Shown here one piece after another: positions 10,172-46,142 of a stretch of 64,000 nucleotides of DNA. The stretch lies in assembly GCF_041248615.1 (NCBI RefSeq), contig NZ_CP158426.1. One strand, given 5' to 3'. The DNA is from Escherichia coli (GTDB taxonomy: Bacteria > Pseudomonadota > Gammaproteobacteria > Enterobacterales > Enterobacteriaceae). The stretch's first letter is position 1, and each line of letters opens with the position of its first letter. The translations under genes and the position numbers were made by a program. The notes beneath the pieces are model-generated. The model saw nothing but the letters and a program-made list of their open reading frames with translations, ran no database searches and had not been told where the DNA came from.

Positions 10172-13100
10172 ATGCAGGTCAGCAGAAGGCAGTTCTTTAA
10201 GATCTGCGCTGGCGGTATGGCAGGCACCACGGCAGCGGCACTGGGTTTTGCACCCAGCGTAGCACTCGCGGAAACCCGGCAGTATAAACTGCTGCGCACC
10301 CGCGAAACCCGTAATACCTGCACCTATTGTTCCGTAGGCTGTGGGCTGTTGATGTACAGCCTCGGTGACGGAGCAAAAAACGCCAAAGCATCTATCTTCC
10401 ATATCGAAGGCGATCCGGATCACCCGGTCAACCGCGGTGCACTTTGTCCGAAAGGCGCTGGCCTGGTGGATTTCATCCACTCCGAAAGCCGTCTGAAGTT
10501 TCCGGAATACCGTGCGCCAGGTTCTGATAAATGGCAGCAAATCAGTTGGGAAGAGGCGTTTGATCGCATCGCCAAACTGATGAAAGAAGACCGCGATGCT
10601 AACTACATTGCGCAAAACGCCGAAGGCGTGACTGTTAACCGCTGGCTCTCCACCGGGATGCTGTGTGCTTCCGCGTCGAGTAACGAAACCGGCTATTTAA
10701 CGCAAAAATTCTCCCGCGCGCTGGGTATGCTCGCGGTCGACAACCAGGCGCGTGTCTGACACGGACCAACGGTAGCAAGTCTTGCTCCAACATTTGGTCG
10801 CGGTGCGATGACCAACCACTGGGTCGACATCAAGAACGCCAACCTCGTCGTGGTGATGGGCGGTAACGCCGCTGAAGCTCACCCGGTCGGGTTCCGCTGG
10901 GCGATGGAAGCCAAAATTCACAACGGCGCGAAGCTGATTGTGATCGATCCTCGCTTTACGCGTACGGCGGCGGTGGCTGACTACTATGCCCCTATTCGTT
11001 CCGGTACTGACATTGCTTTCCTGTCAGGCGTATTGCTGTACCTGCTGAACAATGAAAAATTCAACCGCGAATACACCGAAGCCTATACCAACGCCAGCCT
11101 TATCGTGCGTGAGGATTACGGCTTTGAAGATGGCCTGTTCACCGGCTACGACGCGGAAAAACGCAAGTACGATAAATCCTCCTGGACTTACGAACTGGAC
11201 GAAAACGGCTTCGCCAAACGCGATACCACGCTGCAACATCCGCGCTGCGTGTGGAACTTGCTGAAACAGCACGTTTCCCGCTACACGCCAGATGTGGTTG
11301 AAAACATCTGTGGTACGCCAAAAGACGCGTTCCTGAAAGTCTGCGAATACATCGCCGAAACCAGTGCTCACGATAAAACTGCCTCGTTCCTGTATGCCCT
11401 CGGCTGGACGCAACACTCTGTTGGTGCGCAAAACATTCGTACGATGGCGATGATCCAGCTGCTGCTCGGCAATATGGGGATGGCAGGCGGCGGCGTTAAC
11501 GCCCTGCGCGGTCACTCCAATATTCAGGGGCTGACGGACCTGGGGCTGCTGTCGCAGAGCCTGCCGGGTTACATGACGTTGCCGAGCGAGAAGCAGACCG
11601 ATCTGCAAACCTACCTTACAGCCAACACGCCAAAACCGCTGCTGGAAGGTCAGGTAAACTACTGGGGCAACTACCCGAAATTCTTCGTCTCCATGATGAA
11701 GGCCTTCTTTGGTGATAAAGCGACGGCGGAAAATAGCTGGGGCTTTGACTGGTTGCCGAAGTGGGATAAAGGCTACGACGTCCTGCAATACTTCGAGATG
11801 ATGAAAGAAGGCAAGGTCAATGGCTATATCTGCCAGGGCTTTAACCCTGTTGCCTCATTCCCGAACAAAAACAAAGTGATCGGTTGTCTGTCGAAACTGA
11901 AGTTCCTCGTCACCATCGACCCGCTGAACACTGAAACCTCTAACTTCTGGCAGAACCACGGTGAGCTGAACGAAGTTGACTCGTCGAAGATCCAGACCGA
12001 AGTGTTCCGTCTGCCATCGACCTGCTTCGCGGAAGAGAACGGTTCTATCGTTAACTCCGGTCGCTGGTTGCAGTGGCACTGGAAAGGTGCGGACGCCCCG
12101 GGGATTGCGCTGACTGATGGCGAGATCCTCTCCGGTATCTTCCTGCGCTTGCGCAAGATGTATGCCGAACAGGGTGGCGCGAACCCGGACCAGGTGCTGA
12201 ACATGACCTGGAACTACGCCATCCCGCATGAGCCGAAGTCGGAAGAAGTGGCGATGGAGAGCAACGGTAAGGCGCTGGCCGATATTACCGATCCGGCAAC
12301 CGGGGCGGTTATCGTCAAGAAAGGCCAACAACTTAGCTCGTTCGCCCAACTGCGCGATGACGGTACCACCTCCTGTGGCTGCTGGATTTTCGCCGGTAGC
12401 TGGACGCCAGAGGGCAACCAGATGGCACGCCGTGATAACGCCGATCCGTCTGGCCTCGGTAACACGCTGGGCTGGGCATGGGCATGGCCGCTTAACCGCC
12501 GCATTCTGTATAACCGCGCCTCCGCAGATCCGCAGGGTAACCCGTGGGATCCGAAGCGTCAGTTGCTGAAATGGGACGGCACCAAATGGACCGGCTGGGA
12601 TATTCCGGACTACAGCGCAGCACCTCCGGGCAGTGGCGTCGGGCCGTTTATCATGCAGCAGGAAGGCATGGGACGTCTGTTTGCCCTTGATAAGATGGCG
12701 GAAGGTCCGTTCCCGGAACACTACGAGCCGTTTGAAACGCCGCTGGGAACTAACCCGCTGCATCCAAACGTTATCTCGAACCCGGCTGCGCGTATCTTTA
12801 AAGACGACGCCGAAGCGTTGGGTAAAGCCGATAAGTTCCCGTATGTCGGAACCACCTATCGTCTGACCGAGCACTTCCACTACTGGACCAAACACGCGCT
12901 GTTGAACGCGATTTTGCAACCAGAGCAGTTTGTGGAAATCGGGGAGTCGCTGGCGAATAAACTTGGCATTGCCCAGGGCGATACCGTGAAAGTCTCCTCC
13001 AACCGTGGCTATATCAAAGCCAAAGCGGTGGTGACCAAACGTATTCGCACGCTGAAAGCGAACGGCAAAGATATCGATACCATCGGTATTCCGATTCACT

Positions 13101-39892: not shown

Positions 39893-41716
39893 TTAATCGT
39901 CTTTCGGTGCGCGGTTGGCGCGACGACGATCGTTTTCCGTCAGGTGACGTTTACGAATACGGATAGAGGTCGGAGTCACTTCTACCAGTTCGTCATCATC
40001 GATGAACTCCAGAGCTTGTTCCAGAGTCATGCGGATAGGCGGAACCAGAACAACGGCTTCGTCAGTACCGGAAGCACGCATGTTGGTCAGTTTCTTACCG
40101 GTCAGGCAGTTTACAGTCAGGTCGTTAGAGCGGCTATGAATACCGATAATCTGACCTTCGTAAACTTCTGCACCGTGACCGAGGAACAGCTTACCGCGAT
40201 CCTGCAGACCGAACAGCGCGAACGCTACCGCTTTACCCTGACCGTTAGAGATCAGTACGCCGTTCTGACGCTGACCCACTTCACCCGGACGTACGTCGTC
40301 GTAGTGGCTGAAGGTGGAGTACAGCAGACCCGTACCAGAAGTCATGGTCATGAACTCAGAACGGAAGCCAATCAGACCACGGCTTGGGATCACGTAGTCG
40401 AGACGTACGCGGCCTTTACCGTCTGGATTCATGTTTTTCAGGTCGCCTTTACGTTCGCCCAGCGCCTGCATCACAGAACCCTGATGCTGTTCTTCAACGT
40501 CCAGCGTCACGTTTTCATACGGCTCTTGTTTACGACCGTCGATTTCACGGAAGATTACTTTCGGACGGGATACCGCCAGTTCGAAACCTTCACGACGCAT
40601 GTTTTCGATAAGAACAGACAGGTGCAGTTCGCCACGACCAGAAACGCGGAACGCATCGGCGTCTTCGGTTTCTTCTACGCGCAGCGCAACGTTGTGTACC
40701 AGTTCTTTGTTCAGACGATCCAGGATCTGACGAGACGTTACGAACTTACCTTCTTTACCGCAGAACGGCGAGGTGTTAACGCAAAAGAACATAGAAACGG
40801 TCGGCTCATCAACGGAGAGTGCCGGCAGCGCTTCAACGTTTTGCGTGTCGCAAACGGTGTCAGAAATGTTCAGTTCGCCCAGGCCCGTGATCGCCACGAT
40901 ATCGCCAGCTTCCGCCAGATCGGTTTCAATACGTTCCAGACCGAGGTGGCCCAGCACTTTACCGACTTTCGCGTTACGGGTTTTGCCTTCGCTATCGATG
41001 ATAGTGACCTGCTGGTTCGGCTTCACTTTACCGCGCTTGATGCGGCCAATGCCGATAACGCCAACATAGCTGTTGTAATCGAGCTGAGAAATCTGCATCT
41101 GGAACGGACCGTCAAGGTCAACGTCCGGCGCAGGAACGTGGTCAACAATCGCCTGATACAGCGGGGTCATGTCTTCCGCCATATCTTCGTGGTCCAGACC
41201 CGCGATACCGTTCAGCGCAGAAGCGTAAACGATCGGGAAGTCCAGCTGCTCGTCGGTCGCGTCGAGGTTAACGAACAGATCGAATACCTGATCCACAACC
41301 CAATCAGGACGCGCGCCAGGGCGGTCAACTTTGTTGATAACAACAATCGGCTTCAGGCCGTAAGCAAACGCTTTTTTGGTTACGAAGCGCGTTTGCGGCA
41401 TCGGGCCGTCAAATGCGTCAACCACCAGCAGCACTGAGTCTACCATGGACATTACACGTTCAACTTCACCACCGAAGTCGGCGTGCCCCGGGGTATCAAC
41501 GATGTTGATACGGTAATCATTCCATTTGATAGCGGTGTTTTTCGCGAGGATGGTAATCCCACGCTCTTTCTCCAAATCGTTGGAGTCCATCACGCGCTCT
41601 TGGGTTTCGGCACGAGAGTCGAACGTACCGGATTGTTGGAGCAGCTTGTCTACCAGGGTGGTTTTACCATGGTCTACGTGCGCGATGATGGCGATATTAC
41701 GCAATTTTTCGATCAC
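39893..41716 (-). CDS. typA: Ribosome-associated translational GTPase TypA/BipA
   Basis: 607 aa [26 protein letters not shown]..., G-motifs AHVDHGKTT / DTPGHADF / NKVD; divergent from glnA. Confidence 0.95.
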
Positions 41717-41864
41717 AACTTTGCCTCAGGCATTAGAAATAGCGCGTTATTGTACACGGATTAATCGCACTACAAAACAGGATCACAAACATCCTCCGCA
41801 AACAAGTATTGCAGAGTCCCTTTGTGATCGCTTTCACGGAGCATAAAAAGGGTTATCCAAAGGT

Positions 41865-42010
41865 CATTGCACCAATATGGTGCTTAATGTTTCCATTGAA
41901 GCACTATATTGGTGCAACATTCACATCATGGTGCAGCCCTTTTGCACGATGTTAAGCATGATAACGCCTTTTAGGGGCAATTTAAAAGTTGGCACAGTTT
42001 TCGCTTTATC
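41865..42010 (+). promoter_or_regulatory. glnA control region: NtrC binding sites and sigma-54 promoter glnAp2
   Basis: Dyad sites tgcaccaatatggtgc (about 41868-41883) and gcactatattggtgca (about 41901-41916); sigma-54 -24/-12 element TTGGCACagtttTCGCT at about 41989-42005, about 85 bp upstream of the glnA ATG. Confidence 0.8.
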
Positions 42011-42088
42011 TTTTTTACGGCGACACGGCCAAAATAATTGCAGATTTCGTTACCACGACGACAATGACCAATCCAGGAGAGTTAAAGT

Positions 42089-43498
42089 ATGTCCGCTGAA
42101 CACGTACTGACGATGCTGAACGAGCACGAAGTGAAGTTTGTTGATTTGCGCTTCACCGATACCAAAGGTAAAGAACAGCACGTCACTATCCCTGCTCATC
42201 AGGTGAATGCTGAATTCTTCGAAGAAGGCAAAATGTTTGACGGCTCCTCGATTGGCGGCTGGAAAGGCATTAACGAATCCGACATGGTGCTGATGCCAGA
42301 CGCATCCACCGCAGTGATTGACCCGTTCTTCGCCGATTCTACCCTGATTATCCGTTGCGACATCCTTGAACCTGGCACCCTGCAAGGCTATGACCGTGAC
42401 CCGCGCTCTATTGCGAAGCGCGCCGAAGATTACCTGCGTTCCACTGGCATTGCCGACACCGTACTGTTCGGGCCAGAACCTGAATTCTTCCTGTTCGATG
42501 ACATCCGTTTCGGATCTTCTATCTCCGGTTCCCACGTTGCTATCGACGATATCGAAGGCGCATGGAACTCCTCCACCCAATACGAAGGTGGTAACAAAGG
42601 TCACCGTCCGGCAGTGAAAGGCGGTTACTTCCCGGTTCCGCCGGTAGACTCTGCTCAGGATATTCGTTCTGAAATGTGTCTGGTGATGGAACAGATGGGT
42701 CTGGTGGTTGAAGCCCATCACCACGAAGTAGCGACTGCTGGTCAGAACGAAGTGGCTACCCGCTTCAATACCATGACCAAAAAAGCTGACGAAATTCAGA
42801 TCTACAAATATGTTGTGCACAACGTAGCGCACCGCTTCGGTAAAACTGCGACCTTTATGCCAAAACCGATGTTCGGTGATAACGGCTCCGGTATGCACTG
42901 CCACATGTCGCTGTCTAAAAACGGCGTCAACCTGTTCGCAGGCGACAAATACGCAGGTCTGTCTGAGCAGGCGCTGTACTATATTGGCGGCGTAATCAAA
43001 CACGCGAAAGCGATTAATGCCCTGGCAAACCCGACCACCAACTCTTACAAGCGTCTGGTCCCGGGCTACGAAGCACCGGTAATGCTGGCTTACTCTGCGC
43101 GTAACCGTTCTGCGTCTATCCGTATTCCGGTGGTTTCTTCTCCGAAAGCACGTCGTATCGAAGTACGTTTCCCGGACCCGGCGGCTAACCCGTACCTGTG
43201 CTTTGCTGCCCTGCTGATGGCCGGTCTTGACGGTATCAAGAACAAGATCCATCCGGGCGAAGCAATGGACAAAAACCTGTATGACCTGCCGCCGGAAGAA
43301 GCGAAAGAGATCCCACAGGTTGCTGGTTCTCTGGAAGAAGCACTGAACGAACTGGATCTGGACCGCGAGTTCCTGAAAGCCGGTGGCGTGTTCACGGATG
43401 AAGCGATCGATGCGTACATCGCTCTGCGTCGCGAAGAAGATGACCGCGTGCGTATGACTCCGCATCCGGTAGAGTTTGAGCTGTACTACAGCGTCTAA
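42089..43498 (+). CDS. glnA: Glutamine synthetase
   Basis: 469 aa [35 protein letters not shown]...; adenylylation-site region NLYDLP present. Confidence 0.97.
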
Positions 43499-43504
43499 TA
43501 GTTG

Positions 43505-43540
43505 AAGTTGTACTACCCGGCGCAACAACGCCGGGATTTA
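43505..43540 (+). terminator. Hairpin terminator / attenuator after glnA
   Basis: cccggcgcaacaacgccggg stem-loop followed by attt, just past the glnA stop. Confidence 0.55.
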
Positions 43541-43624
43541 GTTGCCGTGGAAACTTTCAGCCCATCTCTGCATGGGCTTTTTTCTCCGTCAATTCTCTGA
43601 TGCTACGCGCTTTTTATCCGTAAA

Positions 43625-43655
43625 AAGCTATAATGCACTAAAATGGTGCAACCTG
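43625..43655 (+). promoter_or_regulatory. glnL promoter with overlapping NtrC operator
   Basis: ctataat -10-like hexamer overlapped by NtrC-type dyad gcactaaaatggtgca at about 43635-43650, about 25 bp upstream of the glnL start. Confidence 0.6.
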
Positions 43656-43671: not shown

Positions 43672-44721
43672 ATGGCAACAGGCACGCAGCCCGATGCTGG
43701 GCAGATCCTCAACTCGCTGATTAACAGTATTTTGTTAATCGATGACAACCTGGCGATCCATTACGCCAACCCCGCCGCGCAACAACTGCTCGCCCAAAGC
43801 TCCCGCAAATTGTTTGGTACGCCGTTACCGGAACTGTTGAGCTACTTCTCATTAAATATCGAGCTGATGCAAGAAAGTCTGGAGGCGGGGCAAGGCTTTA
43901 CCGATAACGAAGTGACGCTGGTCATCGACGGGCGCTCGCATATCCTTTCTGTGACGGCCCAGCGTATGCCGGACGGCATGATCCTGCTGGAGATGGCTCC
44001 GATGGATAACCAGCGCCGCTTAAGTCAGGAACAGCTACAGCACGCCCAGCAGGTTGCTGCCCGTGATTTAGTGCGCGGCCTGGCACATGAGATTAAAAAT
44101 CCGCTTGGCGGTTTACGTGGCGCGGCGCAGCTGCTCAGCAAAGCATTACCTGACCCGTCACTACTCGAATATACCAAAGTGATTATCGAACAGGCGGACC
44201 GGCTGCGAAATCTGGTCGACCGTCTGTTGGGACCGCAACTGCCCGGTACGCGCGTTACCGAAAGTATTCATAAAGTGGCTGAACGCGTAGTGACGCTGGT
44301 GTCGATGGAACTGCCGGACAACGTGCGGTTGATTCGTGATTACGATCCCAGCCTGCCGGAACTGGCGCACGACCCGGATCAAATTGAACAGGTCTTGCTG
44401 AATATTGTGCGCAATGCGCTACAGGCGCTGGGGCCGGAAGGCGGTGAAATCATTCTGCGTACCCGCACCGCGTTTCAACTGACCTTACACGGCGAGCGCT
44501 ATCGGCTGGCGGCGCGAATTGATGTGGAAGATAACGGGCCGGGCATTCCGCCTCATTTGCAGGATACGCTGTTTTACCCGATGGTCAGTGGCCGCGAAGG
44601 TGGCACCGGGCTTGGCTTATCCATCGCCCGTAATTTGATTGATCAGCATTCAGGCAAAATTGAATTTACCAGTTGGCCTGGTCATACCGAGTTCTCGGTT
44701 TACCTGCCTATCAGGAAATAA
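43672..44721 (+). CDS. glnL: Nitrogen-regulation sensor histidine kinase NtrB
   Basis: 349 aa; H-box [11 protein letters not shown], HATPase_c G-boxes (GTGLGL). Confidence 0.95.
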
Positions 44722-44732
44722 AGGTGACGTTT

Positions 44733-46142
44733 ATGCAACGAGGGATAGTCTGGGTAGTCGATGACGATAGTTCCATCCGTTGGGTGCTTGAACGTGCGCT
44801 CGCTGGAGCGGGTTTAACCTGTACGACATTTGAGAACGGCGCGGAGGTACTGGAGGCGCTGGCGAGCAAAACGCCGGATGTGCTGCTTTCAGATATCCGT
44901 ATGCCGGGAATGGACGGGCTGGCGCTGCTCAAGCAGATTAAACAGCGCCATCCGATGCTTCCGGTCATCATTATGACCGCACATTCCGATCTGGATGCTG
45001 CCGTCAGCGCCTATCAACAAGGGGCGTTTGATTATCTGCCCAAACCGTTTGATATCGACGAAGCCGTGGCGCTGGTTGAGCGCGCCATCAGCCATTATCA
45101 GGAACAGCAGCAGCCGCGTAATGTTCAGCTTAACGGCCCAACGACCGATATCATCGGCGAAGCGCCAGCCATGCAGGACGTGTTCCGTATTATCGGTCGG
45201 CTTTCGCGTTCTTCTATTAGCGTGCTGATTAACGGCGAATCCGGCACCGGTAAAGAACTGGTCGCTCATGCCCTGCATCGCCACAGTCCGAGAGCCAAAG
45301 CGCCATTTATCGCGCTGAATATGGCGGCTATCCCGAAGGATTTGATCGAATCAGAACTGTTTGGTCACGAGAAAGGCGCGTTTACCGGCGCGAATACCAT
45401 TCGTCAGGGGCGTTTTGAACAGGCCGATGGCGGCACGTTATTTCTCGACGAAATTGGTGATATGCCGCTGGATGTGCAGACGCGTTTGCTGCGCGTGCTG
45501 GCAGACGGTCAGTTTTATCGCGTTGGCGGCTATGCGCCGGTGAAAGTGGATGTGCGGATTATCGCTGCCACTCACCAGAATCTTGAACAGCGGGTGCAGG
45601 AAGGTAAGTTCCGTGAGGATCTGTTCCACCGCCTGAACGTCATCCGCGTTCATCTGCCACCACTGCGTGAGCGTCGGGAAGATATTCCCCGCCTGGCACG
45701 CCATTTTTTACAGGTTGCCGCGCGCGAACTGGGCGTAGAAGCGAAGTTACTGCATCCGGAAACCGAAGCCGCGCTGACGCGTCTGGCGTGGCCAGGCAAC
45801 GTGCGCCAGCTGGAAAACACCTGCCGCTGGCTAACGGTAATGGCTGCCGGACAGGAAGTGTTGATTCAGGATTTGCCTGGCGAACTGTTTGAATCAACGG
45901 TTGCGGAGAGTACTTCGCAAATGCAACCGGACAGTTGGGCGACGCTGTTAGCGCAGTGGGCAGACAGAGCGCTGCGTTCCGGTCATCAAAACCTGCTTTC
46001 CGAAGCGCAGCCTGAGCTGGAACGGACGTTACTGACCACCGCGCTGCGACATACGCAGGGGCATAAACAGGAAGCGGCGCGGCTACTCGGCTGGGGGCGT
46101 AACACTCTGACGCGGAAGTTAAAAGAGCTGGGGATGGAGTGA
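44733..46142 (+). CDS. glnG: Sigma-54-dependent response regulator NtrC
   Basis: 469 aa from [23 protein letters not shown] (receiver), AAA+ sigma-54 activator domain ([14 protein letters not shown]) and C-terminal HTH; track ORF starts 20 codons upstream inside glnL. Confidence 0.95.

Follow-up and report, generated by a model that had tools for sequence, protein, structure and literature searches.

The glnA control region of an Escherichia coli chromosome segment: canonical glnALG architecture with small natural base changes relative to K-12

Judged from its sequence, the region at positions 41865–42010 of the window (the whole 64,000-nucleotide stretch of DNA analysed here) is almost certainly the classical glnAp2 regulatory region of Escherichia coli, that is, the canonical control region of glnALG. 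This glnA control region is already known, intact and ordinary, and it departs from K-12 by a small number of common natural substitutions, of which three fall within a single weak NtrC site. No evidence contradicting the canonical glnALG reading was found. Given that loose motif counts in the window equal chance, the case for the glnA enhancer rests on the strength, clustering, position and orthology of its sites.

Locus and strong NtrC dyads

The wider neighbourhood is standard for E. coli, comprising the yih sulfoquinovose genes, typA, glnALG, yshB, hemN, polA and an rRNA operon. In the list of open reading frames, typA occupies 39893–41716 on the minus strand. On the plus strand, glnA (glutamine synthetase, 469 aa; 42089–43498), glnL (ntrB, the sensor kinase NRII, 349 aa; 43672–44721) and glnG (ntrC, the response regulator and enhancer-binding protein NRI, 469 aa; 44733–46142) are arranged in operon order, with all three reading frames intact. 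The GlnA protein is identical to K-12 WP_001271717.1, and GlnL and the translation of glnG are likewise identical to those of K-12. The initial annotation had concluded that nitrogen regulation is intact. This holds for the contents of the window, where GlnA, GlnL and GlnG equal their K-12 counterparts, but it does not extend to the whole Ntr circuit, which is unreadable from a window outside of which rpoN, glnB, glnD and glnK lie.

The gene order typA(−)/glnA/glnL/glnG is the same as in K-12, whose typA–glnA intergenic region is orthologous to this one. The stretch 41700–42100 was present in one copy in 5425 of 5426 complete E. coli genomes, with flanking annotation of typA and glnA throughout. 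Its alignment with the K-12 glnAp1/glnAp2 region was gapless, with 394 of 401 bases identical (98.3%), and the seven SNPs lie at 41876, 41928, 41952, 41954, 41955, 41998 and 42063, the last of these in the 5′ UTR. The CRP site, NtrC sites I, II, III and V and the −24/−12 element were found at the same positions in both sequences, site II being identical. A lack of alignment between the motifs and the K-12 glnA region, which the initial annotation had named as fatal to its reading, was thus not observed. Its description of a textbook architecture in the expected orientation is supported both by orthology to the K-12 region and by the reproduction of the published site coordinates. Compared with the O157:H7-type glnALG locus, including that of strain PV15-279, the identity over 41700–42100 was 100%, and no difference was detected in the stretches compared.

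The inferred transcription start of glnAp2 was placed at 42016 on the plus strand, 73 nt before the glnA ATG, because this is the single position that puts sites I and II both at their published locations of −140 and −108. A previous study located the glnAp2 enhancers at these two positions and low-affinity sites at −89, −66 and −45 (PMC5159524). The two strong TGCACCA-type dyads that had been noted upstream of glnA are indeed present, at 41868–41884 and 41900–41916. The former, high-affinity site I of the enhancer (TGCACCAATATGGTGCT), has one mismatch to TGCACC-N5-GGTGCA and scores 25.5 bits; its centre (41876) lies at −140 from this start, and it overlaps the −35 region of glnAp1. The central spacer base of this site, likewise 41876, is T here and C in K-12, T being the commoner base in other genera. 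The latter, high-affinity site II (AGCACTATATTGGTGCA), has two mismatches to the dyad consensus and scores 24.9 bits, with its centre (41908) at −108 and 32 bp from that of site I, a spacing that fits a shared helical face.

Counting matches to a loose consensus was dropped as a test, since the counts equalled chance: three dyads with at most two mismatches were observed in the window, compared with 3.0 expected from shuffling. It was replaced by strength, clustering and an independent weight matrix. Two dyads with at most one mismatch were observed against 0.19 expected (P about 0.017), and of 300 first-order Markov random sequences matched in dinucleotide frequency, 0.7% contained a dyad pair within 60 bp (P about 0.007). 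The NtrC weight matrix was trained only on orthologues of sites I and II from genomes outside Escherichia. When the 64 kb were scanned with it (about 64,000 positions), a check proposed in the initial annotation, three dyads ranked at the top with 24.9–26.1 bits, and the next best score was 10.2. This fourth-best sequence (GGCACTGGAAAGGTGCG, 12075–12091, 10.2 bits) looks like a chance match.

Promoters of glnA and glnL

The sigma-54 promoter glnAp2, which had been described as a TTGGCAC-N5-TCGCT −24/−12 element upstream of glnA, was recovered at 41989–42005 on the plus strand as TTGGCAC-AGTTT-TCGCT, on the basis of sequence, a consensus scan and the K-12 alignment. Its GG (41991–41992, at −25/−24) and GC (42003–42004, at −13/−12) are exactly 10 bp apart, and the element ends 84 nt before the glnA ATG at 42089. 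With a loose consensus, two sigma-54-like matches were observed in the window against 3.7 expected; the sole other match (TGGCAGGTGCATTGCA, 19236–19251, minus strand) looks like chance. Position 41998 (−18), in the non-consensus spacer of the element, is T here and A in K-12, with T in 16 of the 101 aligned sequences described below. A 76-mer containing the window's sigma-54 element was identical in 765 of 5424 E. coli genomes.

The second glnA promoter, glnAp1, has been described as a weak sigma-70 promoter, located 115 bp upstream of glnAp2 and preceded by a classical CRP site, with CRP as its activator and NtrC-P blocking it (PMC1865078). Applying the published 115-bp offset, we infer an approximate start for this CRP-dependent promoter at 41901 on the plus strand, inside site II. 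A CRP site, TGTGA-N6-TCACG, was identified at 41823–41838 in a stretch identical to that of K-12, and its centre (41830.5) corresponds to about −70.5 from the inferred glnAp1 start. No register of −35/−10 hexamers matched convincingly for glnAp1. With their poor −35 boxes, glnAp1 and glnLp both went undetected in a generic sigma-70 scan over 2.1 kb.

At the glnL promoter (glnLp; 43629–43650, plus strand), identified from sequence and the weight matrix, the −10 hexamer TATAAT (43629–43634) is joined to an NtrC operator dyad, TGCACTAAAATGGTGCA (43634–43650), which begins on the last T of TATAAT. The initial annotation had reported a dyad overlapping this promoter; the dyad is present, while the coordinate given for it, 43635–43650, is one base off. 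Scoring 26.1 bits, it is the best match in the window, and because it was absent from the training set of the matrix, it provides independent confirmation. NtrC has been reported to repress glnAp1 and glnLp and to activate glnAp2 (PMC9731577). At 43605, in the −35 region of glnLp, whose match is poor, there is a single T>A difference from K-12, 24 bp upstream of TATAAT.

The glnA 3′ UTR (43499–43583, plus strand) was assigned by its seed and terminator to the 85-nt "O157-type" GlnZ sRNA, a type with the seed next to the terminator that has already been described (PMC9731577). The O157:H7-type locus has the same 85-nt GlnZ 3′ UTR, again with the seed next to the terminator. In the window the seed (TTGCCGTGGAAA) is located at 43542–43553 and the terminator stem at 43559–43578, followed by a T run. 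The glnA–glnL spacer is 112 bp shorter than that of K-12, which holds about 112 bp of extra sequence. Just after the glnA stop and upstream of the GlnZ seed, a hairpin without a T run, CCCGGCG-CAACAA-CGCCGGG (seven GC pairs), occupies 43516–43535; lying inside the O157-type GlnZ, this GC-rich hairpin probably contributes to the structure of the sRNA. In an Rfam search over the GlnZ region (E-value 1), no family of the library searched reached threshold, and matches to Ysr49, anti-hemB, naRNA4 and rliD, all below their gathering scores, were rejected as chance or terminator-like.

Conservation and the site IV allele

A cross-species search using one genome per species and 21 specified bases around the sigma-54 promoter recovered the exact bases in 108 stretches, all but a couple of them from Enterobacterales, across more than 30 genera. 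The 100 stretches with enough flanking sequence were aligned with the window to give 101 Enterobacterales sequences. The sigma-54 element served as the search anchor; its invariance in this alignment is by construction and was given no weight. Mean column conservation was 0.94 for the CRP site (41821–41842), 0.92 for site I, 0.92 for site II, 0.86 for site IV and 0.82 for site V. Site III was split between its right half (0.92) and its left half (0.68), and the spacers between the CRP site, site I and site II reached 0.67–0.68. Salmonella, Klebsiella, Citrobacter and Enterobacter showed the same order and spacing of the CRP site, sites I and II, the weak sites and the sigma-54 promoter, and in these genera glnLp also has a dyad overlapping its −10. 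Among the 75 Enterobacterales loci long enough to be tested, 67 had TATAAT or TATACT directly abutting an NtrC-type dyad between glnA and glnL. On the strength of these footprint blocks and of the glnLp arrangement, the glnA/glnLp architecture is, by sequence comparison, conserved and not merely orthologous.

Of the low-affinity NtrC sites, site III (41919–41935; centre 41927, at −89; five mismatches to the dyad) is consensus-like only in its right half, TGGTGCA, and has one SNP relative to K-12 at 41928, where the window carries A. Site V (41963–41979; centre 41971, at −45; four mismatches) is identical to that of K-12. Both of these lie at the published positions. Site IV (41943–41959; centre about 41950.5, at about −66) keeps its left half, TGCAC, whereas AAGCA replaces the GCGCA of K-12 in its right half. 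The substitutions relative to K-12 are 41952 G>T, 41954 G>A and 41955 C>A, which convert GGTGCG to GTTAAG; the published experiments were carried out on the K-12 version of the site. Across genera the site reads TGCAC-(G/T)AT-NNN-G(C/T)GCA, compared with TGCAC-GAT-GTT-AAGCA in the window; in most of the Salmonella, Klebsiella, Citrobacter and Enterobacter genera it is of the GGTGCGCA type, whereas the window has GTTAAGCA, and the spacers and 5′ UTR diverge. The cross-genus form of site IV consists of two NtrC half-sites placed one base too close together, which is consistent with low affinity. With the full 17-mer NtrC matrix, sites III–V score below 0 in both alleles and are recognised only by position and published footprints, so the matrix gives no measure of what the site IV substitutions do.

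At 41954, 87 of the 101 aligned Enterobacterales sequences have G and three have A, and the 17-mer of the window's site IV is shared with only one other sequence among the 101, also from E. coli; the site IV allele is accordingly derived within E. coli. The K-12-like state is found in nearly all other Enterobacteriaceae. The change in site IV is linked to the SNP at 41928 in site III. When 5418 complete E. coli genomes were surveyed with a 76-bp probe over sites III–V, the window haplotype was found in 2066 (about 38%), including O157:H7 strains and Nissle 1917. The K-12 haplotype, distinguished by four differences, was found in 3190 (about 59%), including K-12 and BL21, and intermediates numbered only 162. 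No report of a natural glnAp2 or site IV polymorphism was found in the openly accessible literature, which included a paper on glnA regulation in UTI89 versus W3110.

These observations allow the same region to be read as a natural variant, in which GTTAAG would weaken the right half of site IV and relax its "governor" effect, such that the ceiling of glnAp2 at high NtrC-P would lie above that of K-12 in O157:H7- and Nissle-type strains. The three substitutions are clustered within site IV, G strongly outnumbers A at 41954 (87 against 3 of 101), and two haplotypes divide E. coli (2066 of the window type versus 3190 of the K-12 type). In addition, the part of PMC5159524 that summarises Atkinson et al. 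2002 states that mutation of site III and/or IV caused no change at low NtrC and gave higher activity above about 20 nM. However, site IV is a poor dyad already in K-12, its half-sites being 1 bp too close, and any extra loss may be immeasurable; moreover, sites III and V are intact save for one SNP. We therefore regard a relaxed ceiling as possible but doubtful. The wider proposal, that the site III/IV haplotype constitutes a species-wide "governor" dimorphism which may give a measurably higher glnA–glnLG ceiling under severe nitrogen limitation, is more tentative still.

The opposite strand and the regulatory model

On the minus strand, which is that of typA, an Rfam match to ES222 (RF02755) extends from 41905 to 41798 with 133 bits, compared with a gathering score of 62. 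The CRP site and NtrC site I fall within this match, which also takes in the beginning of site II and ends at a stem-loop (41816–41794). ES222 is a real family match and a separate feature on the other strand, and it is probably the divergent ncRNA G0-10705, which has been described as antisense to the glnA 5′ region (PMC7967276); a literature search on ES222 found nothing relevant. On the same strand, a sigma-70-like TTTAAA-17-TATCAT (41986–41958) is oriented towards typA; its two hexamers fall in blocks that are conserved between genera (ATGATAACGCC and TTTAAA) and overlap site V and the edge of site IV. This candidate promoter may add to the conservation of that stretch.

An alternative reading attributes the conservation of the blocks between −90 and −30, in part or mainly, to the opposite strand, where they would act as a divergent sigma-70 promoter or as a leader of typA and the ES222 sRNA instead of serving as weak NtrC sites. 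Although the ES222 score, the report of G0-10705 and the location of both hexamers in conserved blocks are in its favour, it appears improbable. In 2.1 kb, 1.9 promoter-like matches are expected by chance and a single one was observed, and ES222 begins at 41905, not near 41951, where the TATCAT promoter would fire. Such a role would also be compatible with the use of the same bases by NtrC, and it leaves sites I and II and the sigma-54 promoter untouched. The reading of the motifs as chance matches without regulatory meaning, prompted by loose consensus counts equal to the shuffle expectation, is refuted by the matrix gap (25–26 versus 10 bits), the clustering (P about 0.007), orthology to the experimentally defined K-12 region and conservation of the elements in more than 30 genera, and its likelihood is negligible.

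For the canonical glnAp2 region, a regulatory model can be outlined in which the sequence, position, distinctness and conservation of the elements and the intactness of the genes come from the present analysis, and binding, looping, activation, repression and the transcription starts are carried over from published work on K-12. Under nitrogen limitation, NtrB would phosphorylate NtrC, whose dimers would occupy the dyads at −140 and −108 and build hexamers. Through DNA looping, these hexamers would reach the closed complex of sigma-54 RNA polymerase at glnAp2 and open it in an ATP-driven manner. The glnAp1 promoter would be activated by CRP from about −70.5, and because both strong dyads, sites I and II, overlap this promoter, bound NtrC would be expected to shut it off. 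The weak sites at −89, −66 and −45 would aid activation when NtrC-P is scarce and restrain it when NtrC-P is abundant, as in the published "governor" effect. The third strong dyad, over the −10/start region of glnLp, would mediate negative autoregulation of glnLG.

Beyond annotation, the region has little significance in itself: the chromosome segment is an ordinary one for E. coli, its glnALG is intact, and the strand and coordinates of the classical region are now fixed. The two natural alleles of a weak "governor" site provide existing material for testing what low-affinity activator sites contribute, and quantitative models of glnAp2 based on K-12 may be inexact for O157:H7- or B2-type strains.
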